DNA of 64,000 nucleotides from Patescibacteria group bacterium (GCA_024277435.1 JAJRVJ010000005.1:25747-89746), one strand, 5' to 3'; counted from the first letter of the stretch, positions 5,914 to 54,666 are shown. Notes: generated by a model from the letters alone, not told the origin. Numbers and translations: made by a program.

Positions 5914-6432
5914 TTATAATTGATAAAGATAAATAGATATACGATCCTCACTGGGTTTATCAACAGTAAGGGGCTCTAGTCCTCGTATAGGAAATGTATA
6001 GGAAATCACCCTTGTACCAGGCGTTGCTTCAGTATACAACTTTTTTACTAATCTGCCTTCAAGCTTTTTTGGCATACCAAATACATAAATAACATCAGCA
6101 CTAGATAAATCTTGTGAAAATAGATTACCAAATACAAATGTAGCATTCTTGGTCCTAGTGAATAATTTACGAGCCACACATACTATGTATAGTGGAAACG
6201 CTAATTCCACACCAACAGCGGTAATATCATACCGTTGAGCAGCAGCTAACACTACCTTTCCATTACCACAACCAAGATCATAAAAACGCTCACCTGACTG
6301 TATATTAGCCAGCGCAAACACTCTATCTAAATCTTTTTTCCACATTGGCACCCATGGAGCCATTGATAATGCAGCAATCGTAAAGCTCAATATGAATAAA
6401 AAAACAATTAAAACAACAACTTGGAGAACCAT
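5914..6432 (-). CDS. class I SAM-dependent methyltransferase with an N-terminal TM helix
   Basis: Motif I FYDLGCGNGKVV; its start overlaps the stop of the upstream Clp-like gene (TAATG). Confidence 0.6.
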   Translation of the reverse strand: MVLQVVVLIVFLFILSFTIAALSMAPWVPMWKKDLDRVFALANIQSGERFYDLGCGNGKVVLAAAQRYDITAVGVELAFPLYIVCVARKLFTRTKNATFVFGNLFSQDLSSADVIYVFGMPKKLEGRLVKKLYTEATPGTRVISYTFPIRGLEPLTVDKPSEDRISIYLYQL

Positions 6433-9209
6433 TAAATTCTTTCGGCCTTAATAACTTCCACCTGGCCACCAGCTTGCAATTCAACAACATCTCTGCGCGA
6501 TAAACGACTCTGTAATAATAATTTTGCAATCGCATCTTGTGCGGTATCTTGTATCAAGCGCCGTAATGGTCGAGCCCCATATATTGGATCATATCCTCGC
6601 TCAGCAAAATCTACCACAGCCTCATCTGTCCAACGTAAGGTAATACCCTTTACTTCCATTTGCTTAGCTAAGCCAGCTAATAATAATTCACACACCTGTT
6701 GCAATTCTTCTTTTGTTAACGGCGTGAATACCACCACATGATCAAACCGATTTAATAACTCAGGACGAAAACTCTGATTGAGTAACCCCTCATTCAATAA
6801 TTGATCTTTAATGCCACCGCTAGTAGCGCCCTTCGCATACAGTTGCTGAATCACATCAGTACCTGCATTAGATGTTGCTACAATCATTGCGTTAGTAAAA
6901 TCTACCGTTCTACCAGTACCATCCGTTAAACGACCATCCTCCATTACCTGTAAAAAGATATTAATAACATCACTATGGGCCTTTTCGATTTCATCTAGTA
7001 ATACAATTCCAAAAGGAGTTTTACGAATAGCTTCAGTTAAATTTCCTTGCTGACCAGGTGCTCCAATTAGTTTCGATAATGAAGCCGGTGTTTGATACTC
7101 ACTCATATCAAAGCGCATCATGTTTGACTCATTACCAAAATACGCTTCCGCGATAGCTTTAGCAGTTTCTGTTTTACCTACACCAGTAGGCCCCAGAAAT
7201 AATAACGAAGCAATTGGACGAGTTGCATCGCGTAAATCTTCACGCGCCCTACGCAACGCCTTACCAATTGCATTAATAGCCTCATGTTGACCAATCACTC
7301 TACGATGCAATAAATCCTCCATGTTCAACAACTTATCAGCCTCATTTTGAGAAATTGCCGCTACTGCCACATTGGTTTTTTCGGACATAATCTGCTCAAC
7401 CGCCGATTTACGTACTAATTGCTTCACACCATAATGCTCACGCGTATAAATAGCAGCTTCCTCAATAATATCCACCGCCTTAGCTGGAAGATGACGATCT
7501 TGTATATAGCGATCACTCAATACCACAGCTGATTCAAGTGCATCATATGTAAAAAATACTTGGTTCTTTGCCTCAATATAAGGAGCGCGACCCTCAAGCA
7601 CTTTGATAGAATCCTGATGATTGAGTTCTGGAACTTGCACAACTTGAAAACGACGCAAAAATGTTTCTTGATTTTCGATGTGCTTCTGAAATTCAGGTGT
7701 AGTAGTAGTACCTAATACTTTTATGTATCCCTGAGAAATATAGTTCATCAAAATTTTACCAATATCAATACTAGACTGTGTTGATCCAGCCCCTAATAAG
7801 GTATGAATATCTTCAATAGCCCAAATAACATTTCCGGCTAAAATAATATCTTGAATAATCAATTGCATGCGTTGCTCTAAACCTCCAATACCTGATGCTC
7901 CAGCAATAATAGCACCCGGATCGGTAACTACTAAGCGCTTATCCTGTAACTGCGCCGGCACATCCTCGGAGGTCATTAAATTCGCAATGCCTTGCAAAAT
8001 TGTAGTTTTACCAACGCCTGAAGGGCCAACTAACATAACGCTACTATGACCCTCTTGCAACACACGAAATGCTTCATTAATTTCTTTCTCTCTACCAATT
8101 GGGGCCATAAATGCATTATTTTTTGCCATCAATGTAAGATCTTGCGAAACAGCGTCAAGATTCTTAGTAGGACGAGCTGTCATAGCCCGATTCATTACCG
8201 TTTTTGGCTTACCACGTGATAAGCGCTTACGACGATGCTCTTTATCCATCAAAGCCGTTACCAAATTACTCCAATGTACTAAATTACGAATCTTCTGCAT
8301 ATCCACATCTCTATCAAATAAAGCATCTTGAATATATTGATCTGCTAAAATTGATCCCACCATTACTTCAACCAAATCTACCGCCGGTTGCTCTTGATAA
8401 CGGGCCTCAGCATAGGCATACATAAGGGCCTTGCGCACCTCTGCGCCAAAATCTGGTGAATGTGTAAATTGATCTAGTTGATTTTCACGGTCGGCAATCC
8501 TCTGTATAGCTGCAACGAGATCTTGCGAGTTTATTTCCACACGATAGAACATTGATGCCACAGCTTCCTGTTCCATCAACGCTAAAAACAAATGACTAGC
8601 CCTCACCTCAGCATGCTTCAACTTAATTGCCAATTGATATGCGTCATCCAATACATTAAGCGCTCGGGTTTTAAAATAGTGTGATACATCAATTTTTTTA
8701 TGATTATCATAAGCACTCCAATACTCCCAACTGTTCATTTCATCAGTGAGGATTTCATCTGCAAAATGATTTGGTTCCGTAATCTCTGGTATTTGCTCAA
8801 GTACACGTTCTATCCGATAATACGCAAATAAATCCGCTAATACTGATAGCCAAAATATCAATAATTCACTCGATCGGTGAGTAAAGAAATCAACAAACGA
8901 GGCTCCAGCTTCATTTAATTCAACTACCTGAAGTACCATTGCCACAAAGCCACCGATACCAATAATTAATAATACTGAATTGATAAACCAATTCACTACT
9001 CGCTCCATCTTTTTTTCTAAGAGAGCAGCTGGGCTAATTTCATGACCCCAATACAATACGTCATTTTGAAAAAAACCATACACACTCTGCTTGTTGTGAC
9101 ACATCGAACATGTCACATGCTCACCAGATGCGGTAAGCGCATAGCCAAACCCATGACATTGTGGGCATTCTAAAAACGATGCGTTATATTGATCCTTCCC
9201 TATGTCCAT
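6432..9209 (-). CDS. atypical Clp/Hsp100-family AAA+ ATPase with an N-terminal zinc ribbon and one TM helix (ClpA/ClpC-like double ring, no M-domain)
   Basis: CPQC...CSMC zinc ribbon; TM helix WFINSVLLIIGIGGFVAMVL; Clp-N-like region; Walker A in D1 (GPSGVGKTT) and D2 ([12 protein letters not shown]); sensor-2 GARPLRRLIQ; short D1-D2 linker; no I/L-G-F/L ClpP loop visible. Confidence 0.85.
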   Translation of the reverse strand: MDIGKDQYNASFLECPQCHGFGYALTASGEHVTCSMCHNKQSVYGFFQNDVLYWGHEISPAALLEKKMERVVNWFINSVLLIIGIGGFVAMVLQVVELNEAGASFVDFFTHRSSELLIFWLSVLADLFAYYRIERVLEQIPEITEPNHFADEILTDEMNSWEYWSAYDNHKKIDVSHYFKTRALNVLDDAYQLAIKLKHAEVRASHLFLALMEQEAVASMFYRVEINSQDLVAAIQRIADRENQLDQFTHSPDFGAEVRKALMYAYAEARYQEQPAVDLVEVMVGSILADQYIQDALFDRDVDMQKIRNLVHWSNLVTALMDKEHRRKRLSRGKPKTVMNRAMTARPTKNLDAVSQDLTLMAKNNAFMAPIGREKEINEAFRVLQEGHSSVMLVGPSGVGKTTILQGIANLMTSEDVPAQLQDKRLVVTDPGAIIAGASGIGGLEQRMQLIIQDIILAGNVIWAIEDIHTLLGAGSTQSSIDIGKILMNYISQGYIKVLGTTTTPEFQKHIENQETFLRRFQVVQVPELNHQDSIKVLEGRAPYIEAKNQVFFTYDALESAVVLSDRYIQDRHLPAKAVDIIEEAAIYTREHYGVKQLVRKSAVEQIMSEKTNVAVAAISQNEADKLLNMEDLLHRRVIGQHEAINAIGKALRRAREDLRDATRPIASLLFLGPTGVGKTETAKAIAEAYFGNESNMMRFDMSEYQTPASLSKLIGAPGQQGNLTEAIRKTPFGIVLLDEIEKAHSDVINIFLQVMEDGRLTDGTGRTVDFTNAMIVATSNAGTDVIQQLYAKGATSGGIKDQLLNEGLLNQSFRPELLNRFDHVVVFTPLTKEELQQVCELLLAGLAKQMEVKGITLRWTDEAVVDFAERGYDPIYGARPLRRLIQDTAQDAIAKLLLQSRLSRRDVVELQAGGQVEVIKAERI

Positions 9210-9592
9210 AATTCAAATATATTCACAGGCATTAAACCAATTTGATAGAGAATATTATATAACACAAATACCGGAACAATCAGCCATAGTAACAATATTA
9301 ATATCAATACGGTCATATACGCGACAGCAATGATCATTAATAGCGAAAAATGCACTACGCGCACTGGAAAACTAATTAATCTACTCACAATATCATTAAG
9401 ACCATACATCGGAGTAAACAAAAACCGCGCAAGAATCTTTAAATTCAGCGTTCGCACTAAATCTTTAGCTTGATAGCGTAAAAGACCAATAATTTTTAGT
9501 GTTCCGCGATAATACCACCACGGAAGAAAATAGACTACGCTCCAAAGAATGTCTATAAACAAAAATTTAAGAGCACTTTTCACAGTCTGCAT
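9200..9592 (-). CDS. hypothetical membrane protein
   Basis: 130-aa ORF with 3-4 predicted TM helices. Confidence 0.4.
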   Translation of the reverse strand: MQTVKSALKFLFIDILWSVVYFLPWWYYRGTLKIIGLLRYQAKDLVRTLNLKILARFLFTPMYGLNDIVSRLISFPVRVVHFSLLMIIAVAYMTVLILILLLWLIVPVFVLYNILYQIGLMPVNIFELWT

Positions 9593-9636
9593 TTCAGAAT
9601 TATACCATTTTTATGGCATAAAAACAAATACGATGA

Positions 9637-13824: not shown

Positions 13825-15930
13825 CTAGTTAGCGTTTTTCTTCACAACAACACCATCGTCTGTTGTGCCTGGATCATTAGTAAGATTTGAAGTTACCTGA
13901 CCAGTTTGCGCCTGCACAGTTTCTTCGCTCGAGGTATCGACTGCAGTAAGAATAGATTCACTTAGGAGTACAAGTAATTTACCTTTATCTTCCTTCGTAG
14001 GCGTTACAGAAACTTCAAAATCAGCAAACTTGCTATCGCCATCTTTCACCGATCGTAAATTCAACGCAACTGTATTATTCGAGGAAGAATAACTAACCCT
14101 ATCATCACTAGAGCCTTCATACGTAACATTATCCAGTAATGTAGTTTGTACTTGCAAGTCCTCCATATTTCCACCGCTTGACGCAACTGTCCAACGAATA
14201 ACATATGTTGTAGTACTACCTACTTTTGGCGGTAACGGCCCATCACCTAGCTTTGTAAGATCGTCATCATAATATCGCGCTTCACTCTCAAGACTTACAT
14301 TACCCTGTAGTTGAGTTTCTGCTTCTACGGAAGTATCAAACTCAATAGACGATCCACCCACCTCAGCAGATGCCACGCTAAATGTAGAGGTAATTTTAGA
14401 AACATCATTTGGTAATACGTCCTTCACGGTGGTAATATATTCAATATCAATAGATTCACCGGCTTCTAGAATTTCAATTGTATCCAACTCAACCTCGCTA
14501 GTATCAACAGCTTTGCCAGAAAACTGTAACTGCAACTGAATTTGTTCAATATCAACTTCAGATGAATTCTCAATACTTAATGTAAGTGGCAACACATCAC
14601 CAGCGCTAGCAAATTGTGGAGCCTCTATAGTAAGTTGCAATTCTGGATTCACAATAAGAATGTCATCACTAGCTTCGGCTTGGATGTTAAAAAATCCATC
14701 CGGTTCTTGAATACCAACCTGTGTAATCATTGTTAACGTTGTTCCTCCATCAGCTGTTACCTCACCCTTTATCTTTACCTTCTCACTAGCTCCAGGAGCT
14801 ATTTCATCAAACAGCCAAGTATGATCACTTTTATCTGCTGTTGGATCAGCTGAGGTTGCGTTAAATCCATCTGGATAATCAATAAATGCCTTAACATTCA
14901 CTAGTGATAACTCTTAATTATTTGTAAATGAATAGATATACTGAATCTCTTCACCGGAACGAGCTTGTTCTATAACATTAGTATCAACCTCAATAATAGA
15001 CTCATCTAACACCACGCTAGTATGAGCTGATTCCTGAAAATCAGAACTAAAATTCTCTGGAGTATACGTAAGTAATGCTGTAATCTCCTTCTGGTCATTA
15101 GTCTGCCCTACTAACTGCCCTATAATAACAATAGTTCCTGACGTACCTGGTTGAACACCTGCTATATCCCACTTATTAGTGGTAGCATCTCGTGGTTGCG
15201 GATCGGATGATCGAAAATAAAAACCTTGTGTAAATACCAACTCAAGTGCACCAGAATCAATTGTAGATTGTGTATTATTAGTATATGTAACCGTGAGCTC
15301 TAATTGATCACCAGATGCAAGCCGTTCAACTGTTTCAAGCTCAAGAGTAACTTCTCCGCTCCCAACCTCTGCTCGATTAGGACCAAATACTAAATACCCA
15401 AGCGCAGCAGCTACAAAAGATAACACAACAATAATAACAGTAAATGACGTTAAAATTGTACGAGTATTATTTTTTCGTTCCAAGGTTGTCATATCAACTG
15501 TTTCATCACCCTCTTCATTCTTATAGAGGTCAAAAAAATCATCCTGGATATCTTCGGTGGATTCTTCTTCATCACCCTCATCCTGGTCTTCATCCTCCTC
15601 GGTATCTTCTTCGTCCTCAATTACATCATCTTCATCGGCGCCTTCTGGTTCAGAATCCTCATCAAATTCATCAGTAGTCATTTCTTGATCAAGTCCCTCA
15701 TCTTGTCCCAAAATCTCCTCACTAACCAATTTTTCTTCTGTAACTTCTTCCTCTACTTTAACTGGTTGTTTTGGTTTACGAGTAGATTTCTTTTTAGGCT
15801 TTGCTTTTGTAGCTTTTCTAGTTGTTTTCTTTGTAACTTTACTGGCAGATTTCCTACTAGGTTTTCCGTTAGATACGGATCCTCCTTTGGCGGACTTTCC
15901 AGAATTTTTAGTTGTAGTCTTATTTGGCAT
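13825..15930 (-). CDS. DUF11-repeat cell-surface protein, membrane-anchored, with a Lys-rich then acidic N-terminal tail. One frame, interrupted by a single in-frame TAA at 14914-14916 (ORFs 14914..15930 and 13825..14901).
   Basis: The two ORFs are in the same frame, separated by TAA plus 4 codons (...YSFTNN*ELSLVNVKAFIDYPDGF). The DUF11-like repeat pattern (TNN...NV.V.D.P.G) runs through the stop. The downstream part has no start context or signal peptide of its own. Confidence 0.5.
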
Positions 15931-19399: not shown

Positions 19400-19631
19400 A
19401 AATAATGTAAGAATAATAAATAAAAAAGTGACACTTGCTGAGGGCCCCATACTACTGGGCGGTACCACCTCAATTTATCACTTCATTGTGAGACTGGTTA
19501 CGGATCTCTGCCGACCTGATCTACTTATCGTATATGATGTTCTGCAGGCTACGTTCCATATATGGATTCCCCCAGTGATAACCAGGGTCTAACGCATGTG
19601 TATATTGTACAGACAAAATATCACTAATTCT
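19400..19631 (-). promoter_or_regulatory. candidate T-box riboswitch leader of ileS
   Basis: The minus-strand RNA contains AAUUGAGGUGGUACCGCCC (plus 19457-19475), which matches the T-box consensus AAUUAGGGUGGUACCGCG at 15 of 18 positions. The UGGU bulge would pair with the ACCA tail of tRNA-Ile. Several AUC(A) triplets lie upstream. I could not fold a clear terminator. Confidence 0.4.
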
Positions 19632-19925
19632 TCACTCTGTAAAGGCTAGGCGCTCTAATACTGCCGTATTCACAGATTCTGTAATAAGAATATTTTTCTC
19701 TGGTATGGTATCACCAAATGTAATAGCAATATGTTGCTTAGCTACATCTAACTGCCTTGCTAAAAAACTTACCAATTCTTTATTAGCCTTACCTTTCTCG
19801 GGTGGAGCTGCTATACGAATCTTTAAGCGATTACCAAGTAAGCCCATCACCTGTGTGGTGTGGGCCCCTGGAACTACTTTGATAAATAGTTGAGTAGTTG
19901 TTTCGTTATTACGATACCAACTCAT
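19632..19925 (-). CDS. YggU/DUF167 family protein
   Basis: 97 aa; GKANKELVSFLA motif. Its start abuts the stop of the upstream 1017-aa ORF. Confidence 0.7.
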   Translation of the reverse strand: MSWYRNNETTTQLFIKVVPGAHTTQVMGLLGNRLKIRIAAPPEKGKANKELVSFLARQLDVAKQHIAITFGDTIPEKNILITESVNTAVLERLAFTE

Positions 19926-22900
19926 TTATGCTTCCATACGATCTTCAAGAGCGCTACGCATAGCTCCATAATCGTAAGATTTAAACTGTGCACCTCGTGT
20001 TTTTGTAAGGCGCATTGACGCAAGCATAGTTTTTCCGCCTCCCTGCATCTTTGCAGTTATTTGCGCAAGATCTGCAAAACGCGCTAACGTAGCTTCAAGG
20101 TCAAAGTCTGGCTCAACTACTTTCTCAGAATCAAGTAGTGATGCAATAAGCGCTTCAACATCATTCGCATCTAATCCCAAGCCAAATACATCACCAAATT
20201 CTGTCTTGTATGAACCTGGACGCATTAACCTTTCTACCAGAGCTTTATTTGAAGCAACAGCTTGATATAGGCCATACTCGTTAAAACGGAATGCATCGCG
20301 CGCGCGCAATGTACTTGGTGGCAACATGTTCTTAACAGCCTCCTGTACTCGTGCTTCATTTAATTTCCAAGCACCATCCGCATCACCTTCGCCGTCTTGA
20401 TATTCATAAAATCCAACTTGGGTTTGCCATGCCCCCGCACCAGCTTCTCTAGACTGTCGAAACACAGCTTCTATCCTCTCACAATAGCCACCAACTTGCG
20501 CAAGTGCCTCAACTGTTTTCTCTGCTTCACCGCCAGTAGTATTACTAATTACATCTAATACAATCTTCGAAAGATCTGGATACTCCAATAGAGATTCAAC
20601 ATATCTAGTAAGCGTATCAACTTTACCTTGTAAATCCAGAGCCTGTTCTGGCGCCGCCGCATCAACTTCTGCAACATCAATATTAGCCTCGGCAAATTGT
20701 TCGCCAGCCTGTTGTTCATCCGCCCCAACTGGAGGCTTAGCATTAGGATTAAAAATTTCAACACCTTTTATCCCAGCTTGTAAATTACGAATAACAACAG
20801 CCACTTGTTCTGTATTAATTTCTTCTTTCGTACCAGCGCCAATTGCTGACAAGAAAATATTATCTAACCTTTCATTCAAGTCTTTCCGATCCTCCGGTGC
20901 AACTGCAGATACCGCCTCACTTCTGCGTCGTAATCTACCACCACTCTTACCAAGTGCATTGCGCCAATCAGTATTACCACCACGACGTGATTCCATTTTT
21001 CTACGCTTTGCTTCTAACGCACTCAAGAGCTCATTGGCCATTTCCGCTCGTTGCGCAGCTGGAACACTAACAGTAGCCTCACGAAACGCCGACACAAATT
21101 CAGCTCCTACCATGCGCCGTGTAAATTTAACTGCTTCCCGGAAATTACCGATAAATGGAGCGTCAACAATAGCCTGCTCAGCGAACGATCGTAATGCAGC
21201 GGCATCCGGCTGTTTATTTTTTACATATCCAAAATGCGTGGCCAGCCTAATCATACGGGCCTTAAATAATCCAGCTCGGCGCTGCGCAAAAACAGCCATT
21301 TTCTTTGAATAGGGTTTTATTTTTTTCTCATCATCAGTCATTTCAAATTCTGGCCCTAACGGCTCGGCCTCTTCTGCACGATCCAATAACCCTAATAAGG
21401 TATTTTCAATATCACTCAATGAAGCACCGCCACGAGCATTCATAGCAACCACTACCTGATTAGGAACAATTTGATATAGTTCCTGCTGAGTTTTAAATAA
21501 TAATCGATCAATCTGGTTCAATTCAACATTCACACCGTCTTCTTCAATTTTTCGATGAGCTCGCATTCTATCTAAGCGATCCAATTTACGCACATATCCT
21601 GCCGGCTGTCTTCGCAACACAATACCCTCGGTACCTGCAACTGCTGCAACCGCTTCTACTCCCTCAGCAGCTTCCACTGCTTCAATCGCCTTACTACCTT
21701 TTACTAGCTCAACTTCACGCTCATGTGTAAATTCAATCGTTCTACCATTTTTATATTTTGGTGGCTCTCCTACACTGGGCATGTCGGCCCATTCCATTAA
21801 CATATCTTTAATTTGAAAAATATCCATATCAGCAAGTGGTTCTACAGATCTACCTATACCGACTGCTTTATGGGCTTCTTCAAGAAATGTATCAAAGTTT
21901 GGAATACGTCTACGCGCAGCATCAATATCCCGTTCTGTATCAAGATTCAAGCGCTCGGTACCACCAGCAGCATTTGTTACCTTAAGTTCAACGCTACCAA
22001 TAACTGCTCGTTCAGCAACTGCCACTTTTCGCAACACACGTTCGCGATGCTTTTGTTCTCTACTCGGACCATTACGATCGTAAGCTGATACGCGCTCATC
22101 AGTAACACTTTCCCGCATCACTTTCAAATCCTCAATCATCTGATCAATCTCACTTTGTAATTCAGGCACCGGATTACCTTCCGGAGTTAATACCTTCGCA
22201 ACTGCAGATGTTACATCAACTGTTGGAAAGCGCTTATCAGCCTTATTCCAGGTTCCCATTTTTTCAATCCTACTCCTATCATCCATTACATCCTCCAACC
22301 GTGAGCTACGCGCGCGCACCCACTCAGCCACTCCATTATATGCATCCAACTGGGTATTGCGCAGTGTTCCTTCAGCTAATCGAATCATATCCTCAATTGT
22401 GCGCGCACTTTTAACTCTACCACGTTCTTTTTTAACCGAAACAAATGTATCGCTTCCAGTAAGCCACTGCTTACCTGGTTCAGCAGCCATCGCAGCCAAC
22501 TGTTCGCGAGCGGCTGCCACAGCAGCATATCCACGATCTACAAATTGCCCTAAAAGTACTTTAGCAACACCTCTGGCAGCCTCATGTGTTTCAACGCCTT
22601 GCCTACCTTCAGTAAAATATTCCTCTCGCAACAATGCAACCTGTGCTGGTAGTGTACGCTCCTCATATTCACGCTCGTCACCTTCAAGAGCATCTCCAAG
22701 AACATCTACTAATCCTGGACGCAATTTTTTATCATATACTCTTGCAGCACCTCTATTTACCTTTGCTTCACGCTTTGGCTGCTCTCGCTTCCGTTTACGA
22801 GGAGCTCTTTCGGAACGCGGGCTTTGCGCTGTAGCGGCATCTGTTGTAGGTGCAGCATCAGAGCCAAGATCAGCAGCAAAGGCTGCAAGCATATCTGGAT

Positions 22901-22979
22901 CAACGGGTTCTCCAGCCTGCCCTGGTTGCACTACTGGATCTGGATTGGGTTTTCGAGCTCCTGGTTTTGATTCTGGCAT
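19926..22979 (-). CDS. large hypothetical protein (1017 aa), Ala/Arg/Glu-rich, no recognised domain
   Basis: Long uninterrupted ORF; the DNA is GC-richer than its flanks. Composition: Pro/Gly-rich N-terminus, then long helical-looking Ala/Arg/Glu-rich segments. Confidence 0.6.
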   Translation of the reverse strand: MPESKPGARKPNPDPVVQPGQAGEPVDPDMLAAFAADLGSDAAPTTDAATAQSPRSERAPRKRKREQPKREAKVNRGAARVYDKKLRPGLVDVLGDALEGDEREYEERTLPAQVALLREEYFTEGRQGVETHEAARGVAKVLLGQFVDRGYAAVAAAREQLAAMAAEPGKQWLTGSDTFVSVKKERGRVKSARTIEDMIRLAEGTLRNTQLDAYNGVAEWVRARSSRLEDVMDDRSRIEKMGTWNKADKRFPTVDVTSAVAKVLTPEGNPVPELQSEIDQMIEDLKVMRESVTDERVSAYDRNGPSREQKHRERVLRKVAVAERAVIGSVELKVTNAAGGTERLNLDTERDIDAARRRIPNFDTFLEEAHKAVGIGRSVEPLADMDIFQIKDMLMEWADMPSVGEPPKYKNGRTIEFTHEREVELVKGSKAIEAVEAAEGVEAVAAVAGTEGIVLRRQPAGYVRKLDRLDRMRAHRKIEEDGVNVELNQIDRLLFKTQQELYQIVPNQVVVAMNARGGASLSDIENTLLGLLDRAEEAEPLGPEFEMTDDEKKIKPYSKKMAVFAQRRAGLFKARMIRLATHFGYVKNKQPDAAALRSFAEQAIVDAPFIGNFREAVKFTRRMVGAEFVSAFREATVSVPAAQRAEMANELLSALEAKRRKMESRRGGNTDWRNALGKSGGRLRRRSEAVSAVAPEDRKDLNERLDNIFLSAIGAGTKEEINTEQVAVVIRNLQAGIKGVEIFNPNAKPPVGADEQQAGEQFAEANIDVAEVDAAAPEQALDLQGKVDTLTRYVESLLEYPDLSKIVLDVISNTTGGEAEKTVEALAQVGGYCERIEAVFRQSREAGAGAWQTQVGFYEYQDGEGDADGAWKLNEARVQEAVKNMLPPSTLRARDAFRFNEYGLYQAVASNKALVERLMRPGSYKTEFGDVFGLGLDANDVEALIASLLDSEKVVEPDFDLEATLARFADLAQITAKMQGGGKTMLASMRLTKTRGAQFKSYDYGAMRSALEDRMEA

Positions 22980-23014
22980 AAGCGCAAATTGATATTAAAA
23001 ATTACCTAGTATGA

Positions 23015-23143
23015 TAGCAGAAAATTACTGCTCTGTCAAGTCGAAATCGGCAGGATTCCATGCTTCTCGCAAAGCCGCCTCTTCTTCTTTTGATACAGCA
23101 TTAGGCTGCTTTTGCTCGTCTTCGTCTGTATATAATGTATGTG
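23015..23143 (-). CDS. possible small acidic protein (42 aa) between the two giant ORFs
   Basis: ATG 23141-23143 to TAA 23015-23017: MNQSHTLYTDEDEQKQPNAVSKEEEAALREAWNPADFDLTEQ. Its C-terminal AWNPADF resembles the AWDPDDF C-terminus of the 1729-aa protein. Confidence 0.25.
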
Positions 23144-23194
23144 ATTGATTCATAGTATTTTTTATATGTACCATTGTACTTATACGCTTTTTTA

Positions 23195-26100
23195 TTAAGT
23201 AAAATCATCTGGATCCCATGCTCCCGCAAGTGGATCATCTTCAGCAATTTCTTCAGGCGCAGTTTCAGGAGCGGCTGACGGGAAACGATCAGGATCAATA
23301 ATTTGTAACCAGGTATCAGGAATTGCTGACTTAATAGCCCCGCGTGTATGCTCAGACCATCCTGCCCATACCATTGCCAACGCATCACGTACGGCGGTAT
23401 CATCAGCTGCAGCGCGTTGTTCAATATATGTTCTAAAATGATCGACATCATCAATGTGCTCTGGACGATACAATTGCTCACCATCAGCAATCTCTTGATC
23501 CCACATCGCAAACATGAAGCGTTCACGATTTTGACCTAGCTGATCCATTGAAATAGGCCCTAATTCGGAAAGTACACTTGAAAATTCAGATTGCCTCCAT
23601 GCCACATCTTCACGTATACCTATGTCACGCTGTCCCACGATGCGACGACGAACACGATCACGTAACCGATCATAATGCCCCTCTGCTTTCGCCCAATCTA
23701 TAAATGCAGTAAGAGCTTCTTCCTGTTCAGAATCTGGGCCTAAAAAAGCATCATACGTATTTCCTACTTGTATCGCCTTCAATAATGCGTCTGTATCCTC
23801 GCTCGTAAGAAATTCTTCTTGAAGCTCTTGTAAGCGTCGAGCAACTTCCTCAGTAAGCTCTGGAGCGCCTGTAGATTCTAGTTCCTCAGGTTGAGCGAAA
23901 GGAAAGTCTTCAGCTGGCGGCGCTTCAGTAAACCATTCATGTGGTATTTCTAGAACGCGTTTAAAATATAAAACCTCTCCTGCATCATCAGAAATTGCAG
24001 CCCAAATACGACGGCGTAATTCTGGTAATTCACCGGCAGATTCTAATTCTCGATAAAATTCCGAAAAGACAGCCACTTCTCTAGATGAAATTGGTGATAA
24101 AATTCCACCTCTCTCATAACTACCTCGTACATTAGTTGCAAAAATAGCTTTCTGACGCTGCTCCAGCTTATCGCTATCAGGAACAACAATATCAGCAACA
24201 AAATCACCCATACCAACAACTCTCCACGCTCGAGTAGTATTTATACCGTTAGAAAGATTATCTTTCACCATTTTTTGAACCCCAGTTCGTAATACATCTA
24301 ATTTACCGTTCTGTTCTGCCCATAAGCGTACTTGCGGCCATACTGCACGATCTTCTTCGTTATTAAAGGGAAACATAATAATACTTCCGCGCTCAAGTTG
24401 GTCAACAATCCTATCAAACGCTTCTCTATATCCTTCGGGAAGGCTTTGGCGTGGATCAGCCTCTGGCACTACAGGCGGCGCCTCTGCTGAAACTTGTTCT
24501 GGTGTTGCAGGAGTAGAAAAATCTGGTGGAGAAGCAGGTCCGCTAGGGGGCGCTGAAAAATCAGGAGGTGAGGTTGGCGCTGATGGCGTACCGAACGTTG
24601 GTGAAGCAACAGGTGTTCCAAAACTAAGTGGAGCAACCGGACCACCTCCTAGTCCACTTAAACCAACTGCGCTAGATGATGCTGAAGGTTTAATAACAAC
24701 CTTCGGAGCTGGTGCTTTAGGGGCGGCTGGCTTAGCTGGAGTTTTTGGTGTTGAAACAGCGGCGGTTGGCACCGAGGTTGTAGTATCAAAAATATCATAT
24801 CCTGCTACAGCATTCGCAACCACTTGACGAATCCTTGCGTTGTTAATACGAGGCACTAACCCGGTTGTTAAAAAACTGGCTGGCGGACCAGATACAGCAG
24901 CATGCTTATCTTCACCCGGCAATACTTCTATTGATCGCACTAACCGCTCCATAGCTGCTAATCCTGCATCACTTGTAAATGCGAATGGTAATGGATAATC
25001 AACTGAGGCATCAGTAACTGCGCCATGGTGACGCAATCGTTCCATAATATACTCACGCACTTTCACATTTGGGAACGCTAAATCAAATCGCACCACTAAT
25101 TCTGCTAAACGAAATAACTCCGTCACGTTTGTAAATTTTTGCATAATATCTGCACGCGCCCCATCAATAATTGCATTACCTGGCTCCACAGCAATAAAGT
25201 CGTTAAACCCATGCTGCATATCAATTAACGAGGTACGTAATCCACGGATATTACTTTGTAACGTACTTACACTTAAATCATTGCCACGATCAATCATTAA
25301 TTGCGAAACCACATCTACTAACGGACCAGGACTAGTAGCATCGGTAGATAAATAATTCTGCAAACCAGTTACCACAGCTGTATCTAATTGATCTGGATAC
25401 GGTGCCACCGTGGATTCTACGCCATTCAAAAATGGCTCGAAAGCACCATCGTACTGATCAGCATCGATATCCTGGTAAAACAAATCTCCCTCACCACCCT
25501 CATACCATTGTCGCGCCTCTATAACTTGCGTAACTATTGTACGAAGATCACGGCGTAATGTAGTTGCACTCTCTAGGAAATCAACACCTATATCACCATT
25601 CGTATTTACAGTTGTCATTACATCTTTCACACGCTCCGTTACACTCTGCTCTGCGGCATGTAAACGAGCATGACGTTGTCGTAATTCTAGCAACATTCCA
25701 GCTGGACGATCTCCTGTGTGTTCCTCTTCAGCAGCAGTTACTTCAGGATGTGAAAAATCACGCCCCTTGATACTATCTGGCACATACATTTCTGGTGAAC
25801 GTGGGGTGCGTCGCGTTTGCAAATTTTCCATGTTATATGGAGTGAGCTCTTCCTCAAGAAATGTACTTACTACAGCCTGACGCAATTCAGTATTTGTACC
25901 CTCCGAAACCTCACCTGCTAATTCACTTACGTTATGCATGATATCTTCTACTGCAAGTGTGTCAGCTAACTGCATTGTCACTTCACCGCCCCTAAAGAAT
26001 ATTTCTGCCAAACGATCGTTATTAATTGCTGAATTTAGACCAATGCTATCATTATACGTATACACGCTTAATTGCGATGCATGATTCAATGCTCCTGGTG

Positions 26101-28384
26101 GTAAATCAAATAACGACTCAGAAAATAACGACTCACTCGCCGTAAATATAGGAGTTCCGTCTGCTGGATTCAGTATTGTTACCATCCCTGTATTTGCATC
26201 AATGGTAATTGAAAAAGTATCTTCACCAATTTGAAATGGTTGTGCACTTCCATCAACAACACTTACCGTATTCGTTGTTTCAATAAGAGCCTCCCCAAGT
26301 GGCACACCATATTCCGTAATATCTATATGGTTTACTGTTTCACCAGTAGCGCTTATAAAATCTATTCTACTTCCATCTGGCGTAGCTTCTATTCCTACAG
26401 TGCGAATATCTACCCCCTCTGGAACCGGAATGATAGCATCTTGCACCATACCATCAGTGGTGTCACTAATAATAATTTCTGTACCACTCGCCGACAATGT
26501 AGCTATTCGATCACCACCAATATCAATCATGGCTGGCGCAGCTCCTTCAGGCCAAGCCGGTGGTGCACTTACTGGTTCAGTGTGCGGGAATGCCGCATCC
26601 AATACTAACGATACGGCTGACGCTGCAGCTCCACCAAGTAACGTGCCCTTGAGAATTTGTGTAAGCTCACCTTTACGAAGTTGTCCCTTAAATTTGCTTT
26701 CAACTTTCTCAATCAATTTCTTCCGTTTCTGATCTTCACGAATCATAGCATCTTGTAATTGTTTACGCGATTCATCTTCAAGCGTATCCATAAATGCAGT
26801 CACTTCAGAAAGCGCTCCCTCTAATTGTTGTGCGAACTGTAAGATAGCTGCGTCACGATTTTGATATCCAAAGCCAATGTAATCCTGCTCCCCACTTTTA
26901 CGTGAACGACGCATGCGCCCATGCGCGTCAGAAATTGTTCCATACAATACTAATACAGTATCATGTAATTCATTTTTTCGTTCGCGTAACTCAATTTCAT
27001 CATTTACAGAGTGTACTCCAAGTGGAGGTGCCTCCCCCTTTTTTCGCGCTTTAGCTTCTTGACTACGCGCTGCCCTCCATTTTTGCTCTGCATTCTTCAC
27101 TTCTTGTTCTGCTTTTTTTACAGCCATAACCTGCGCATCAAGAACTTGCACAATACGCTCAGCGCTGCGTACCACTTCATATTCTTCCTTGCCAACCTTT
27201 ACAGTGTATTCACGTGAACCAATAGCTGCATCTAATCGCTTCCGACGCTTCCGCTTTCGTGAATTCATTACTGCTCGTGCAAAACCAGCTACCGTACCTA
27301 AGCCTGCAGCAATAATTAAGCCAGTACCGCCAGTAAGCGCGCCTACACCCGCTGTAACACCTATTGTAAATTTTGCGCCTCCCCTTATTCCCACTGTCCA
27401 AGCGGTACCAGATGTTACAATGCGTTTCCCCCCATCAATAACTAACTGTAGCGCTGCTGGATAATCTCTATCAACTTCCTTTTCAATTACCTTTGAAGTA
27501 ACTGTGGCCTGCGCAGTTTCGGCTGCTAAATTTACTAGTTGATCTCGCAATAATACAGCCCAATGCTTATGAATAGCGTTTTTAATTTTAAATGCCTTAT
27601 TACCAGACTTCATTTCTGGAGTAGTGAAATCGAGTATCCCAAACGAACCTCCTAAATCGTACTCATTATTGCCGTGAATATTAATATGGCCAATAATCTG
27701 CTGGATACCATTAGTATATTCAGTATGCGCTAATACCTGAGCCACACTTATTTCACCGGCTTGAAATTCAGTAATAATTCGACGTAACTTCTTACCGCCC
27801 ATCTCCATATAATCTTCGAGACGCTTCCTATCAATTGCTCTGGTAATTGCCGATTCCAAAGCGGTATTCATATAACTCGTACGTTGACGAATCTCCGCTT
27901 TTTTCTTCGCTACATCACCAAAGTGCCTACTTTTACCAAAAGCCGAAAACGAAATATCATTCACTCCTAAATCTCTGCCCAACTCTTTCATTGCACCTGC
28001 AGTAAAACGATATAACCAACCAGACTGCGTCATGTTTTCGGCATGAGCATAATCCGATTCTGTTTTAGCTTCTAGTGAAATTTGCACTTCCAAATCACGT
28101 ACGGCATCACGTAGTATTTCGGATGAAATACCATGCTCATTCACTAAACCAGCTAAACGTTCTAATACATAGTCATCATGATATATTCCAGACTCACGAA
28201 ATCTCTTACCAAGCGCCTCACGAATATCATCAGTTTTTACAACTTGTACCTCAGGTACCTCACGAGATCGACGGCTTTTTCGCTGTAAATCAACCTCCCT
28301 TTTACGTACTCGCACATCACGTTCACGCTGTTGAGCACCATGTCTGTGGGTTTGCCGCTTAACTTGTTGTTCAGCTGGTAACAT
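23195..28384 (-). CDS. giant hypothetical protein (1729 aa) with a Gly-zipper TM hairpin, a long Pro/Ala/Ser-rich linker and unknown domains
   Basis: Single ORF. TM-like segment GVTAGVGALTGGTGLIIAAGLGTVAGF followed by RKRKRRKR. Low-complexity PAAPKAPAPK...SPPDFSAPPSGPASPPDF region. Its start lies 2 nt after the stop of the 104-aa ORF. Confidence 0.6.
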   Translation of the reverse strand: MLPAEQQVKRQTHRHGAQQRERDVRVRKREVDLQRKSRRSREVPEVQVVKTDDIREALGKRFRESGIYHDDYVLERLAGLVNEHGISSEILRDAVRDLEVQISLEAKTESDYAHAENMTQSGWLYRFTAGAMKELGRDLGVNDISFSAFGKSRHFGDVAKKKAEIRQRTSYMNTALESAITRAIDRKRLEDYMEMGGKKLRRIITEFQAGEISVAQVLAHTEYTNGIQQIIGHINIHGNNEYDLGGSFGILDFTTPEMKSGNKAFKIKNAIHKHWAVLLRDQLVNLAAETAQATVTSKVIEKEVDRDYPAALQLVIDGGKRIVTSGTAWTVGIRGGAKFTIGVTAGVGALTGGTGLIIAAGLGTVAGFARAVMNSRKRKRRKRLDAAIGSREYTVKVGKEEYEVVRSAERIVQVLDAQVMAVKKAEQEVKNAEQKWRAARSQEAKARKKGEAPPLGVHSVNDEIELRERKNELHDTVLVLYGTISDAHGRMRRSRKSGEQDYIGFGYQNRDAAILQFAQQLEGALSEVTAFMDTLEDESRKQLQDAMIREDQKRKKLIEKVESKFKGQLRKGELTQILKGTLLGGAAASAVSLVLDAAFPHTEPVSAPPAWPEGAAPAMIDIGGDRIATLSASGTEIIISDTTDGMVQDAIIPVPEGVDIRTVGIEATPDGSRIDFISATGETVNHIDITEYGVPLGEALIETTNTVSVVDGSAQPFQIGEDTFSITIDANTGMVTILNPADGTPIFTASESLFSESLFDLPPGALNHASQLSVYTYNDSIGLNSAINNDRLAEIFFRGGEVTMQLADTLAVEDIMHNVSELAGEVSEGTNTELRQAVVSTFLEEELTPYNMENLQTRRTPRSPEMYVPDSIKGRDFSHPEVTAAEEEHTGDRPAGMLLELRQRHARLHAAEQSVTERVKDVMTTVNTNGDIGVDFLESATTLRRDLRTIVTQVIEARQWYEGGEGDLFYQDIDADQYDGAFEPFLNGVESTVAPYPDQLDTAVVTGLQNYLSTDATSPGPLVDVVSQLMIDRGNDLSVSTLQSNIRGLRTSLIDMQHGFNDFIAVEPGNAIIDGARADIMQKFTNVTELFRLAELVVRFDLAFPNVKVREYIMERLRHHGAVTDASVDYPLPFAFTSDAGLAAMERLVRSIEVLPGEDKHAAVSGPPASFLTTGLVPRINNARIRQVVANAVAGYDIFDTTTSVPTAAVSTPKTPAKPAAPKAPAPKVVIKPSASSSAVGLSGLGGGPVAPLSFGTPVASPTFGTPSAPTSPPDFSAPPSGPASPPDFSTPATPEQVSAEAPPVVPEADPRQSLPEGYREAFDRIVDQLERGSIIMFPFNNEEDRAVWPQVRLWAEQNGKLDVLRTGVQKMVKDNLSNGINTTRAWRVVGMGDFVADIVVPDSDKLEQRQKAIFATNVRGSYERGGILSPISSREVAVFSEFYRELESAGELPELRRRIWAAISDDAGEVLYFKRVLEIPHEWFTEAPPAEDFPFAQPEELESTGAPELTEEVARRLQELQEEFLTSEDTDALLKAIQVGNTYDAFLGPDSEQEEALTAFIDWAKAEGHYDRLRDRVRRRIVGQRDIGIREDVAWRQSEFSSVLSELGPISMDQLGQNRERFMFAMWDQEIADGEQLYRPEHIDDVDHFRTYIEQRAAADDTAVRDALAMVWAGWSEHTRGAIKSAIPDTWLQIIDPDRFPSAAPETAPEEIAEDDPLAGAWDPDDFT

Positions 28385-28386
28385 AA

Positions 28387-28701
28387 TTAACTATCTTGTT
28401 TACACAACGTTATGTATTCTTCTTCAAAATGCTCTAACACCTCAAGTAACTTACCTTGTATTACCGGGGCTTGATCACCAAGAAATTCTTCTAGTTCTTT
28501 CTGCTCTACACCGCGCTCTAGTAAAGAACCGTATCGTACACGATCTTCAGCTGATAATTCCTGTAATACTGCAGCATCAAACTTCTGTTCAAGCTGAATG
28601 TACAGATCCATAATCATTTTTTCTTCCAGTTGCTCTGGAAGCTCCACATCATGAGCTTTATGCAGTAATTGGCGTATGCGCTCTACTAAACGTGGGTCCA
28701 T
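28387..28701 (-). CDS. small acidic helical protein (104 aa), first gene of the giant-protein operon
   Basis: ORF MDPRLVERIRQLLHKAHDVELPEQLEEKMIMDLYIQLEQKF..., tightly coupled to the 1729-aa gene. Confidence 0.5.
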   Translation of the reverse strand: MDPRLVERIRQLLHKAHDVELPEQLEEKMIMDLYIQLEQKFDAAVLQELSAEDRVRYGSLLERGVEQKELEEFLGDQAPVIQGKLLEVLEHFEEEYITLCKQDS

Positions 28702-28744
28702 ATATTAGTAAACATTATATAATTTCGATAAAGATTAACGAAAG

Positions 28745-28774
28745 ACAATAACACAAGATGACAACTTTGTCAAT
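28745..28774 (-). promoter_or_regulatory. putative sigma70-type promoter for the 104-aa / 1729-aa operon
   Basis: On the minus strand, TTGACA (plus 28769-28774), an 18-nt spacer, then TATTGT (plus 28745-28750), about 45 nt upstream of ATG 28701. Confidence 0.3.
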
Positions 28775-28832: not shown

Positions 28833-29390
28833 TTACCGTAATTCAAAATAGGCTCCAAAATTTACACTATCCCCTCCTCGATGAGAAAAATAGGTACCAT
28901 TATCACATTTTGTGCATACATCAACCAGTGCTATACGGTCATCCGTAACCCCATATTCTCTAGCCTGCACATAATTCTCTTGTTTAATATCAATATCTTC
29001 ATAACAACACGCCCCAATCGCCGGACCAATCGCAACGCGCACGGTTTCTGAATTAAACTCCTGAAGTACAACGGTAAGTATTTCTCGAATTGTACCCTGA
29101 AAACCCGCATGCACAACACCTCCGGAATGCGTAGATGGATCGTAAAGAATAATTGGCGTACAATCCGATACACCAACCCGCAATCGCAAGCCCACCTCTT
29201 TTGTAAGTAATGCATCCGTTTGAGAAACCGGTACCAATGTAGCGCTATCTACCCAGGCAAATGTATTGTGATGCACTTGCTCAGCAATAACGTCGTATTG
29301 TTGCAAATGCTCTGAATGTCGATTAGAAATTCCATGATCAATATTAAAATCTTCGAACAACGAAAATGTTAAAAGATCATTATTTCTCAT
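28833..29390 (-). CDS. YfiH/PgeF (DUF152) family laccase-domain / purine nucleoside phosphorylase-like protein
   Basis: VSDCTP, GVVHAGFQGT, CTKCDNGTYFSHRG motifs. Confidence 0.65.
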   Translation of the reverse strand: MRNNDLLTFSLFEDFNIDHGISNRHSEHLQQYDVIAEQVHHNTFAWVDSATLVPVSQTDALLTKEVGLRLRVGVSDCTPIILYDPSTHSGGVVHAGFQGTIREILTVVLQEFNSETVRVAIGPAIGACCYEDIDIKQENYVQAREYGVTDDRIALVDVCTKCDNGTYFSHRGGDSVNFGAYFELR

Positions 29391-34374: not shown

Positions 34375-34821
34375 ATGCCAACGTTAGTACGAAACAAACG
34401 AGCTAAATATGATTACTCTGTCGTTGATGATTTTGAGGCTGGTTTGGTGTTAACTGGAGCGGAAGTAAAGTCTGTGAAAAACGGCCATGTTAGCCTTGAA
34501 GGCGCCTATGTAGGCATCACCGATAACCAACTTTGGCTTAAAAACATGCGGATTACACCCTATCAACAGAATAACCAACGGGAGTACGATCCTATGCGAC
34601 CGCGCCGCTTATTATTGCATCGTAAAGAGATTAGTAAACTAATTGGAAAAATGAAGCAGCAGGGCTTGACATTGGTTCCGGAATCCTTGTATACTACGAG
34701 GGGTTTTGTCAAGGCAAAACTCATTTTAGGTAAAGGTAAAAAGAAGTCCGACAAGCGAGCTACCATTAAAAAACGGGAGCTAGATCGCAGAGTAGGACGC
34801 GCCCTTCGACAAAAAGTCTAA
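34375..34821 (+). CDS. smpB: SsrA-binding protein SmpB
   Basis: 148 aa; KYDYSVVDDFEAGLVLTGAEVKS...; basic C-terminal tail. Confidence 0.95.
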   Translation: MPTLVRNKRAKYDYSVVDDFEAGLVLTGAEVKSVKNGHVSLEGAYVGITDNQLWLKNMRITPYQQNNQREYDPMRPRRLLLHRKEISKLIGKMKQQGLTLVPESLYTTRGFVKAKLILGKGKKKSDKRATIKKRELDRRVGRALRQKV

Positions 34822-34867
34822 TAATAAACGTTCACGTTATTATTTGTGCTAATGTTAGCAGTAATAA

Positions 34868-35260
34868 CGGGGATGTTTATATTCGATGATATCGTTCTTT
34901 TCATTGCTTGCTAGATGTGCTGAATATCACATTAATCTGTTCAAAAGTACAATTGCAAACATCGTACAAAAGGCTAAAGCGAAAGTTGCAGCATTATTTG
35001 CTCAACCACTAGCTTTTGCTCCTGCTGTAGCCTAAAACCTACAGCCATCCACTGATCTGATGCCTCATAGGATCACTCGGGTGTCACTTTATAAGGCTAT
35101 GCTATATAGTTCTGGGACTATGTAGATGAAAATTGCTCTCAGATCGAAGGTTGCCGTTTTGGCTGTTTTCCAGGTTAACCTTTTAAATGAAAAAACTGCC
35201 TAGCTAGTAGACGGTAATGCGATAGCGTATTAGACGCGGGTGTGAGCCCCGCCATCTCCA
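34868..35260 (+). ncRNA. ssrA: transfer-messenger RNA (tmRNA, SsrA)
   Basis: 5' GGGGAUGUUUAUAUUCGAUG pairs with 3' CAUCUCC-A to form a 7-bp acceptor stem with a G3:U70 wobble. The 3' GACGCGGGU...CCCGCC T-arm is near-identical to E. coli tmRNA. An internal tag frame, ...GCU AAA GCG AAA GUU GCA GCA UUA UUU GCU CAA CCA CUA GCU UUU GCU CCU GCU GUA GCC UAA, ends AFAPAVA*. The gene lies directly downstream of smpB. Confidence 0.75.
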
Positions 35261-35329
35261 CAATTACATGTAATGTACTGCCCCATCACACTTCAGTATC
35301 TTGCATAATTAATTACTAACACTACCACA

Positions 35330-54201: not shown

Positions 54202-54666
54202 CTACGTTTCATCATTGCGCAAGATAGGTACGACCTCGCGCTCCACGGCCACAGCCGGGTCCACCATGAGGTCGATGAACCGCGGGTGCCGAGAGCTGGC
54301 TCCGATCCGCTTCTCCCAGTGACTGGCGAAGGCGAAGGGCACGAAGATCGTAATCCAGTAGAGCAGCCAGTCCTCCAGGCAGAACAATAACGCGGCGCCC
54401 AGAGTGTGGACACCGAAGATGCTGTGGAGCAGAACGGCGTAGAAGCCGAACTCCACTAGGTAGCGGAGGATGGTGTAGAGGTACCAAGCTCCGGCCGGCA
54501 CGTACTCCTTCAGGCTGCGCACCCGAGCCACCTCGATGGCCTTGGCCTCTCGCGACTCCCGGATGAGCTGGAAGAGACCCTTGCGGGTCATGGGGATCAA
54601 GATCGCGTACTGCTTAAGGATAATCACGATCTTTGCGAAGATGGTCAGGCTGATGGGATCAACCAT
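54202..54666 (-). CDS. hypothetical polytopic membrane protein in a GC-rich patch
   Basis: ORF MVDPISLTIFAKIVIILKQYAILIPM... with 4 TM helices; DNA roughly 58% GC. The overlapping ORFs 54075..54413 and 54212..54487 are spurious alternate frames. Confidence 0.4.
   Translation of the reverse strand: MVDPISLTIFAKIVIILKQYAILIPMTRKGLFQLIRESREAKAIEVARVRSLKEYVPAGAWYLYTILRYLVEFGFYAVLLHSIFGVHTLGAALLFCLEDWLLYWITIFVPFAFASHWEKRIGASSRHPRFIDLMVDPAVAVEREVVPILRNDET

Follow-up and report, generated by a model that had tools for sequence, protein, structure and literature searches.

A lineage-specific 8.9-kb insertion encoding two giant proteins at the YfiH/YggU junction of a patescibacterial genome

We analysed a stretch of 64 kb (the window) of a Patescibacteria group bacterium (GCA_024277435.1 JAJRVJ010000005.1:25747-89746), in which a block of minus-strand genes encodes two giant proteins, of 1729 and 1017 amino acids (aa), and two small acidic ones (Table 1). 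This 8.9-kb block is a lineage-specific insertion located exactly at the YfiH/YggU junction of a conserved argS-GT4-YfiH-YggU-ileS-RecO cluster. Its genes are real, i.e. they are not random open frames: with a frequency of stop triplets of 0.055, an open reading frame (ORF) of 1729 aa would arise by chance with a probability of ~1e-42, and one of 1017 aa with ~1e-25.

Position and composition of the block

On the minus strand the genes follow one another in the order 104-aa ORF, 1729-aa ORF, small ORF, 1017-aa ORF, YggU and ileS. Upstream of the block (5' on the same strand) lie YfiH/Cu-oxidase_4, a GT4 glycosyltransferase gene and argS, and 131 nt separate YfiH from the 104-aa ORF. The ORFs of 104, 1729 and 1017 aa that an earlier note on this DNA had reported on the minus strand are all present, between the flanking genes that it had named (YggU/DUF167 and ileS on one side, YfiH, GT4 and argS on the other). 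The acidic ORF that it gave as 42 aa also exists, but this length counts from the second ATG; from the first ATG the ORF encodes 49 aa, the form annotated by NCBI.

An ileS-anchored scan keeping one genome per species yielded 80 loci, mostly from Patescibacteria, the best ileS being only 53% identical to that of the window. These loci were then searched with the flanking genes of the window. One of them, L009 (Kerfeldbacteria), carries argS, GT4, YfiH, YggU, ileS and RecO in the order and orientation of the window, but the block is absent and the gap between YfiH and YggU is 4 nt. It is on this six-gene order and this short gap that the assignment of the block as an insertion at the YfiH/YggU junction rests. 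Comparison with the L009 copy also indicates that YfiH kept its full length, i.e. that it was not cut by the insertion. In a second locus, L012, the order is argS-GT4-(TSP3-repeat protein)-(serine hydrolase)-YggU-...-ileS-RecO. Since L012 carries different genes there, the GT4-YggU slot is variable across Patescibacteria, and the YfiH-YggU slot thereby varies between patescibacterial lineages. Three further loci (L050, L064 and L068) have the order argS-GT4-ileS-RecO. No relative of the block proteins was found in the 80 loci by tblastn, by phmmer or with a profile (A1) of the alignment of the 1017-aa protein with its single relative, described below. The earlier claim that the block is lineage-specific is thus borne out, both by its absence from the otherwise identical cluster of L009 and by proteins that belong to no assigned family.

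Some details of these neighbourhoods may be added. In L012 the GT4-to-ileS slot (7291-9619) comprises the TSP3-repeat protein, the serine hydrolase and YggU, and in addition an ORF of 305 aa that runs on the opposite strand and carries no annotation. The gene for transfer-messenger RNA (tmRNA) adjoins argS in L009 (4539-4932) and in L012 (2065-2467), the relatives with the best synteny, and in the window SmpB and a tmRNA (81.9 bits) are found near argS, at 34375-35263 on the plus strand; the conserved neighbourhood therefore reaches beyond argS. Four extra small genes lie between argS and SmpB in the window (DUF302, TauE and two unknowns). The best matches of ileS, argS and GT4 are labelled Kerfeldbacteria, Magasanikbacteria or "Patescibacteria group", and Saccharibacteria-labelled loci rank 31st or lower. 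Best matches and gene order thus point to a Kerfeldbacteria- or Magasanikbacteria-like member of the Patescibacteria and not specifically to Saccharibacteria, to which the organism had been likened.

The block had been described as richer in GC than its neighbours. This is the case (43.8%, the remainder of the window having 39.6%), but the excess is modest and confined to codon positions 1 and 2 (GC1 0.60-0.64, GC2 0.43-0.44). At the third position the giants have GC3 values of 0.287 and 0.276, for 0.24-0.35 in the neighbouring genes. The share of Gly, Ala, Arg and Pro taken together is 0.30-0.34 in the giants and ~0.21 in the neighbours, and the enrichment in Ala, Arg and Glu noticed earlier in both giants is real: 10.2/7.2/8.3% for the 1729-aa protein and 13.1/8.9/9.9% for the 1017-aa protein, relative to a background of 7.7/4.6/6.8%. 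Synonymous codon usage was assayed for 40 genes against the pooled other genes, using a likelihood-ratio measure divided by its degrees of freedom (G/df). The giants give 1.70 and 1.49, close to ileS (1.60) and ClpB (1.63), and the smallest per-codon synonymous deviation among the 40 genes is that of the 1729-aa gene. Because the GC excess is confined to the first two codon positions, with native GC3 and codon usage, it is an amino-acid effect of proteins rich in Ala, Arg, Gly, Pro and Glu, and no signature of a high-GC donor. The homolog of the 1017-aa protein likewise combines high GC1 with low GC3 in its own genome; the pattern thus belongs to the protein family.

This bears directly on the proposal that the block was acquired horizontally, a high-GC actinobacterial host being the donor put forward in the earlier note. 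GC3 and synonymous usage of the giants match those of the flanking genes, so that composition does not serve as a signature of transfer, and the searches brought up no homolog from Actinobacteria or any other organism, save one metagenomic relative of the 1017-aa protein. Neither phage, plasmid nor viral-contig sequences gave a match. There is no tRNA gene within the window and no meaningful direct or tandem repeat flanking the block, and the abutting genes are housekeeping genes, with no integrase among them. A recent transfer from a high-GC donor is thus rejected. Since codon usage is native and the block is marked by no repeat, tRNA or integrase, these observations point to an insertion that is either old or arisen within the lineage, and not to a recent import. 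A horizontally acquired island in the wider sense, including one that is ancient and ameliorated, could still account for the absence of the block at the syntenic locus of L009 and of other Patescibacteria, for a total GC that exceeds that of the remaining window by 4 points, and for a position in the GT4-YggU slot, which holds different genes in L012 and is hence tolerant to insertion. Weighed against the native codon usage, the same pattern of high GC1 and low GC3 in the relative, the absence of homologs and the lack of mobility marks, we consider such an island quite improbable.

What a recent import looks like can be seen elsewhere in the window. Two genes, each forming an island of 55-60% GC with abrupt boundaries, stand out from a background of ~39% GC: 49337-50407 (minus strand, 356-aa protein) and 54202-54690 (minus strand, 162-aa hydrophobic protein). 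Their GC3 (0.635 and 0.833) and their G/df (6.3 and 7.3, for 0.6-2.5 in native genes) look foreign. Neither protein has a match in Pfam, and the 356-aa protein has none among plasmids or phages. These two genes, not the giants, are the true compositional outliers of the window and its candidates for recent import from a high-GC source. More generally, a raw GC excess can stem purely from amino-acid composition, and it is GC3 together with synonymous usage that discriminates.

The 1017-aa protein, its relative and the transcription of the block

When the 1017-aa protein was used as query in a full HMMER scan of 1.84 billion cluster representatives, a single relative was returned, P0004 (E = 1.9e-11), a protein of 1051 aa encoded on a 4.9-kb contig (L081) of the Logan assembly of SRR22387933. 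The two proteins are collinear end to end, with ~22-27% identity, and have in common a single Cys, a Pro-rich N-terminus and a composition rich in Ala, Arg, Glu and Pro. They are also alike in their place directly upstream of ileS and in the near-consensus promoter sequence ahead of their genes: on L081, P0004 is followed by a leader of 296 nt and then by ileS, whose product is 73.5% identical to that of the window over the first 204 residues. The 1017-aa protein and P0004 constitute a real, constrained, two-member new family whose genes keep the same position upstream of ileS. That this family evolves fast follows from the comparison of the two levels of identity, 73.5% for ileS and yet ~25% for the 1017-aa/P0004 pair.

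The surroundings of P0004, known over these 4.9 kb only, differ from the window in several respects. No YggU lies between P0004 and ileS, no small ORF (hence no counterpart of the 49-aa ORF) precedes P0004, and the upstream gene ends in a J-domain and not in a W[DN]PxDF tail. Of this upstream gene (L081 1-783, plus strand) only the 3' end is present, its N-terminus being cut by the end of the contig. Its product terminates with a Gly/Phe-rich stretch, then the J-domain, which is genuine (Pfam DnaJ, E = 2e-24), and lastly an acidic tail rich in Pro and Ala that closes on DEDEY.

The 1017-aa protein is mostly helical, with a Pro-rich and then basic N-terminus, and its sequence contains no transmembrane segment, signal peptide or export signal. 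The Pro-rich N-terminal peptide (residues 1-25, aligned with 1-27 of P0004) is conserved at P2, P6, G7, P11, P13, D14, P19, E24 and P25, and could be a docking or export motif. The model obtained with AlphaFold2 from the two-sequence alignment is unusable, its mean predicted local distance difference test (pLDDT) being 36.4.

Other searches were negative. For the four ORFs of the block, Pfam and NCBIfam gave no match at the curated cut-off, PADLOC no defence-system match, and PHROGs nothing at E <= 0.1, the only values being 0.18 and 0.27 with families of unknown function, and none of them for either giant. No match was obtained in sequence searches of the PDB with whole proteins and sub-regions, in tblastn searches of 50,697 phage records and of a plasmid collection, or in a scan of viral contigs (IMG/VR). 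Walker A, HExxH, LPxTG and HPD motifs are absent from both giants, and Foldseek found no PDB match at E <= 1e-3 for the model of either one. The earlier observation that the giants show no recognised motif thus extends to all these collections. Scans of JGI metagenomes with the A1 alignment and with P0004 brought no new relatives of the 1017-aa family. A word-indexed search that covered 5.8 billion protein clusters matched each giant only to itself. At 90% identity each protein of the block forms a cluster of its own, as do YggU and YfiH of this genome. BLASTP and hhalign detected no similarity between the two giants, and their paralogy was rejected. Both giants appear to evolve very fast, which would explain their orphan status in a lineage with one sequenced genome. 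Orphan genes that evolve fast are common in undersampled lineages such as this patescibacterial one, and the block is a typical, if large, instance.

The promoter-like sequence ahead of P0004 on L081, TTGACA-N16-TATATT with an extended -10, lies in a spacer of 94 nt. In the window a site of the same kind, P2, precedes the 1017-aa gene; its alignment with the L081 sequence scores 24, a value equalled or passed by 7 of 500 shuffles. P2 is one of five sites of the 64-kb window with 11 of 12 consensus matches, and one of the two among these which have the TG; its -35 box falls within the last codons of the 49-aa ORF. A second site, P1, upstream of the 104-aa gene, is a less good match (10 of 12 against 11 of 12). 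It is the one that had been described as TTGACA-N18-TATTGT: a promoter-like site is indeed present, but its spacer is 17 nt. A perfect 6+6 palindrome, TGACAA-AG-TTGTCA (28759-28772, minus strand), overlaps the -35 box of P1 and could be an operator.

From their agreement with the consensus we infer that P1 and P2 function as promoters. The genes of the block are co-directional, as the proposal of a single operon transcribed from 28745-28774 implied, but one operon is not assured because the second and better promoter-like site directly precedes the 1017-aa gene. Two transcription units are probable: the 104-aa and 1729-aa genes, and perhaps the 49-aa ORF too, would be read from P1, and the 1017-aa gene together with YggU from P2. 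Only 2 nt separate the 104-aa from the 1729-aa gene, so that these two may be translationally coupled.

Anatomy of the 1729-aa protein and possible roles of the block

The 1729-aa protein has a net charge of -75 and no Cys at all (background 0.58%, P = 4e-5), a lack that it shares with the two DUF11 surface-type proteins of the window. The three features that the earlier note had picked out are present: a Gly-rich hydrophobic stretch (residues 333-375), the run RKRKRRKR (376-383) and a Pro/Ala/Ser/Thr linker (1203-1311), the latter counting 27 Pro and 26 Ser+Thr among its 109 residues. Between the basic N-terminus and the hydrophobic stretch, residues 51-330 are predicted helical. The charge is very unevenly distributed, +5 over residues 1-332, +9 over 377-576 and -93 over 601-1729. 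Beyond the third hydrophobic segment, residues ~610-760 are rich in Ser, Thr and beta structure (predicted strands at 619-749); the C-terminal part also includes a helical region, and it finishes with an acidic, Trp-rich region ending LAGAWDPDDF-T. By the positive-inside rule the protein would be anchored in the membrane, the hairpin 333-375 having both ends in the cytoplasm, and residues 600-1729 are, from hydropathy and charge, probably outside the cell. By eye, modules of ~40 aa seemed to be repeated in the last 400 residues; they were rejected, pairwise z-scores reaching at most 3. A relation of these modules to the upstream fragment of L081 was rejected as well, since the module HMM missed this fragment among ~2,800 ORFs.

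Of the two small proteins, that of 104 aa has a net charge of -13, with 24% D+E (17% Glu), 16% Leu and no Trp; we found neither a homolog nor a WxG motif. This acidic protein may be a partner or chaperone of the basic N-terminus of the giant. The C-terminus of the 49-aa ORF, LREAWNPADF, mirrors the end of the 1729-aa protein, LAGAWDPDDF (23201-23230, minus strand), and no ORF other than these two, out of 558 read in six frames, contains the motif W[DNE]PxDF. At the DNA level the alignment of both 3' ends scores 26, for 12.2 +/- 2.1 in shuffled sequences, none of 500 of which reaches it, and a 1-nt indel lies upstream of the shared part. The 49-aa ORF looks like a partial duplication of the 3' end of the 1729-aa gene.

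The account that we favour, tentatively, places the 1729-aa protein in the envelope, anchored in the membrane and with its acidic Cys-free region outside, the 104-aa and 1017-aa proteins being its partners. The basic N-terminus and the helical N-domain would remain cytoplasmic, and the glycine-zipper hairpin, pinned by RKRKRRKR, would sit with a coiled-coil stalk at the inner face of the membrane. The third transmembrane segment would export 1,130 residues, i.e. a beta-rich part, a helical part, a Pro/Ser/Thr-rich linker spanning the wall and an acidic Trp-rich head, and this exported part would be a structural or contact element of the surface. The 104-aa protein would act on the basic N-terminus, as partner or chaperone, and the 1017-aa helical protein, for which alone a relative could be detected, would be a partner in the cytoplasm.

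There is a parallel among bacteria of the Candidate Phyla Radiation (CPR), whose giant proteins have been proposed to build the cell surface and contact the host (PMC8080830). The membrane proteome of Vampirococcus, which belongs to the CPR, is enriched in giants of 1392-4163 aa, thought to mediate attachment to the host (PMC8080830). The ten longest proteins of Vampirococcus lugosii (PMC8080830) resemble the 1729-aa protein in length, in restriction to a lineage and in belonging to a reduced, ultra-small genome, and perhaps also in membrane anchoring, which for the 1729-aa protein is predicted from hydropathy and the positive-inside charge pattern. They differ in that most of them carry recognisable interaction domains, of which the 1729-aa protein has none, and in layout, since the latter has no signal peptide and would consist of an N-domain, a hairpin, a coiled coil, a transmembrane segment and an ectodomain. 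Without sequence homology, the likeness is one of kind and not of family.

Several points weigh against an envelope protein. The 1729-aa protein has neither a signal peptide nor a recognised adhesion or wall-binding domain, and its topology is predicted from hydropathy and charge only. No usable structure model was obtained for the giants (mean pLDDT of 36.4 for the 1017-aa protein and 40.8 for residues 1-1200 of the 1729-aa protein) and no fold match reached E <= 1e-3; in the AlphaFold2 model of the 1729-aa protein the only part of usable confidence is 420-475 (pLDDT 73-84), and the weak Foldseek matches of this low-confidence model, all beta-propellers (E >= 5e-3), are a hint only. The 1017-aa protein has no export signal, and the two giants are linked by adjacency only. 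The J-domain encoded upstream of P0004 must be cytoplasmic; if that gene were the counterpart of the 1729-aa gene, the C-terminus of the 1729-aa protein would lie inside, although homology between the two is not detectable. The failure to find a homolog of the 1729-aa protein comes from the word-indexed search, which is less sensitive than the full HMMER scan made with the 1017-aa protein. With the A1 alignment this search returned the query only, and not P0004, although P0004 is part of the query. The index is probably incomplete for some sources, and the orphan status of the 1729-aa protein, which rests on this search, is less secure. Finally, an ancient horizontal transfer followed by amelioration, of which we gave our low estimate above, would concern the origin of the block.

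As the main alternative, the block might encode a scaffold associated with the membrane on its cytoplasmic side, or a chaperone-linked module. The 1729-aa protein would then face the cytoplasm entirely, its hydrophobic segments being re-entrant or peripheral anchors, and it would act with the 1017-aa protein in a role linked to DnaK/J or to morphogenesis. Such an arrangement would suit the abundance of long helices in both giants, the absence of an export signal in the 1017-aa protein and the gene preceding P0004, whose J-domain and Pro/Ala-rich acidic tail recall in style the tail of the 1729-aa protein. Membrane-anchored J-domain co-chaperones of the DjlA type offer a model: the J-domain of the L081 neighbour is C-terminal, as in DjlA, and the 1729-aa protein is also predicted to be membrane-anchored and is encoded directly upstream of the 1017-aa family member. 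The 1729-aa protein is nevertheless about six times longer than DjlA and contains no HPD motif or J-domain. Its positive-inside pattern, the charge of -93, the absence of Cys and the Pro/Ser/Thr linker better fit an external location.

A role in morphogenesis was also considered from the side of gene neighbourhood. In Firmicutes YfiH and YggU belong to the ylm/ygg neighbourhood which precedes divIVA-ileS. No Pfam match at cut-off was found in the four ORFs, for DivIVA, SepF and YggT in particular, and neither DivIVA, SepF nor any other division family is among the 25 families most frequent upstream of ileS in 58 patescibacterial loci, where argS predominates with some GT4 and SmpB. Because L009 shows the YfiH-YggU junction to be ancestral, the block replaces no division gene; the idea that it had taken the place of sepF/divIVA in a cluster of the Firmicutes type (ylmD...divIVA-ileS) was rejected, YfiH and YggU being adjacent in relatives. 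Taken as a whole, a cytoplasmic scaffold or chaperone-linked module seems somewhat unlikely.

A phage-tail or secretion remnant, composed of a small acidic chaperone, a tape-measure-like giant and a large tail or hub protein, was suggested by another resemblance: an acidic helical protein of ~100 aa, encoded directly ahead of a giant that is mostly helical, lacks Cys and has glycine-zipper or Gly-rich hydrophobic segments, recalls chaperone/tape-measure pairs. We take this resemblance as a lead only. The phage searches above gave no match, PHROGs at E <= 0.1 and IMG/VR contigs included, and the flanking genes are housekeeping genes and not those of capsid, terminase, sheath, tube or baseplate. 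The beta-rich region of the 1729-aa protein and its Pro/Ser/Thr linker are atypical for tape-measure proteins, from which its acidic C-terminal region also sets it apart. A variant in which the small protein would be of the WXG100 type, in a system resembling type VII secretion, meets with a 104-aa protein that has no WxG motif or any Trp, and with the absence of an ATPase of the FtsK/SpoIIIE type among the annotated neighbours. Either version appears to us very improbable indeed.

A bolder form of the envelope account would make the 104-, 1729- and 1017-aa proteins a so far undescribed apparatus of new folds that spans the envelope of a deep-branching patescibacterial lineage. A platform in the cytoplasm would be connected, by the glycine-zipper hairpin and a transmembrane segment, to an acidic head that spans the wall and touches a host or partner cell, and the small ORF, with its copy of the W[DN]PxDF tail, would compete for tail docking or regulate it. 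We regard this bolder form as unlikely.

Other features of the window and implications

Table 1. Coordinates of the block, its promoter-like sites, the segments of the 1729-aa protein and the genes at the edges of the insertion
Feature	Position	Strand	Description
YfiH/Cu-oxidase_4	28833-29390	minus	upper boundary of the insertion; full-length relative to its L009 counterpart
P1 (promoter-like)	28745-28773	minus	TTGACA-N17-TATTGT with TG extended -10; 10/12 consensus matches; upstream of the 104-aa gene
104-aa acidic protein gene	28387-28701	minus	ORF; stop 2 nt before the ATG of the 1729-aa gene
1729-aa giant protein gene	23195-28384	minus	ORF
1729-aa protein, residues 1-50	28235-28384	minus	basic, 15 K+R in 50 residues
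1729-aa protein, residues 333-383	27236-27388	minus	Gly/Ala-rich, glycine-zipper-like (333-375; Kyte-Doolittle to 1.68), then RKRKRRKR (376-383)
1729-aa protein, residues 407-564	26693-27166	minus	four long helices
1729-aa protein, residues 577-599	26588-26656	minus	third hydrophobic segment, Kyte-Doolittle 1.67; basic before, acidic after
1729-aa protein, residues 600-1729	23198-26587	minus	acidic Cys-free part
Small acidic ORF	23025-23174	minus	49 aa from first ATG, 42 aa from second ATG
P2 (promoter-like)	23011-23039	minus	TTGACA-N17-TATCAT with TG extended -10; 11/12 consensus matches; directly upstream of the 1017-aa gene
1017-aa protein gene	19926-22979	minus	stop abuts the YggU start at 19925
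YggU/DUF167	19632-19925	minus	starts immediately behind the stop codon of the 1017-aa gene; lower boundary of the insertion

Upstream of ileS lies a T-box-like leader (19437-19682, minus strand), for which Rfam gives a weak match of 26.7 bits (E = 0.0086), under the gathering score of 93. It contains the T-box-like core AGGTGGTACCGCC at 19470-19458, followed by a U-run, and in L081 GGGTGGTACCG with a U-run occupies the same place upstream of ileS (4036-4330). Because of the core and U-run at this position, ileS probably starts at the ATG at 19390 (MNFPEMEQ...) and not at the GTG at 19468.

Farther away, two ClpB-like double-AAA+ paralogs lie 3 kb apart, at 1037-3607 and 6432-9209 (minus strand); in the latter a long N-terminal extension puts the start of the first AAA module at about residue 370. 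Between TGT and RecO, two adjacent genes (13825-14901 and 14914-15930, minus strand) encode acidic Cys-free proteins with weak DUF11 matches, which are probably surface proteins.

The useful outcomes of this analysis are the exact site of an insertion, a single homolog with conserved synteny and a topology model open to testing. If the surface display of the 1729-aa protein is true, the block would provide candidate host-contact proteins for a patescibacterial lineage that has no cultured member and one sequenced genome, and would add new, unmodelled folds to the giant proteins of ultra-small bacteria.

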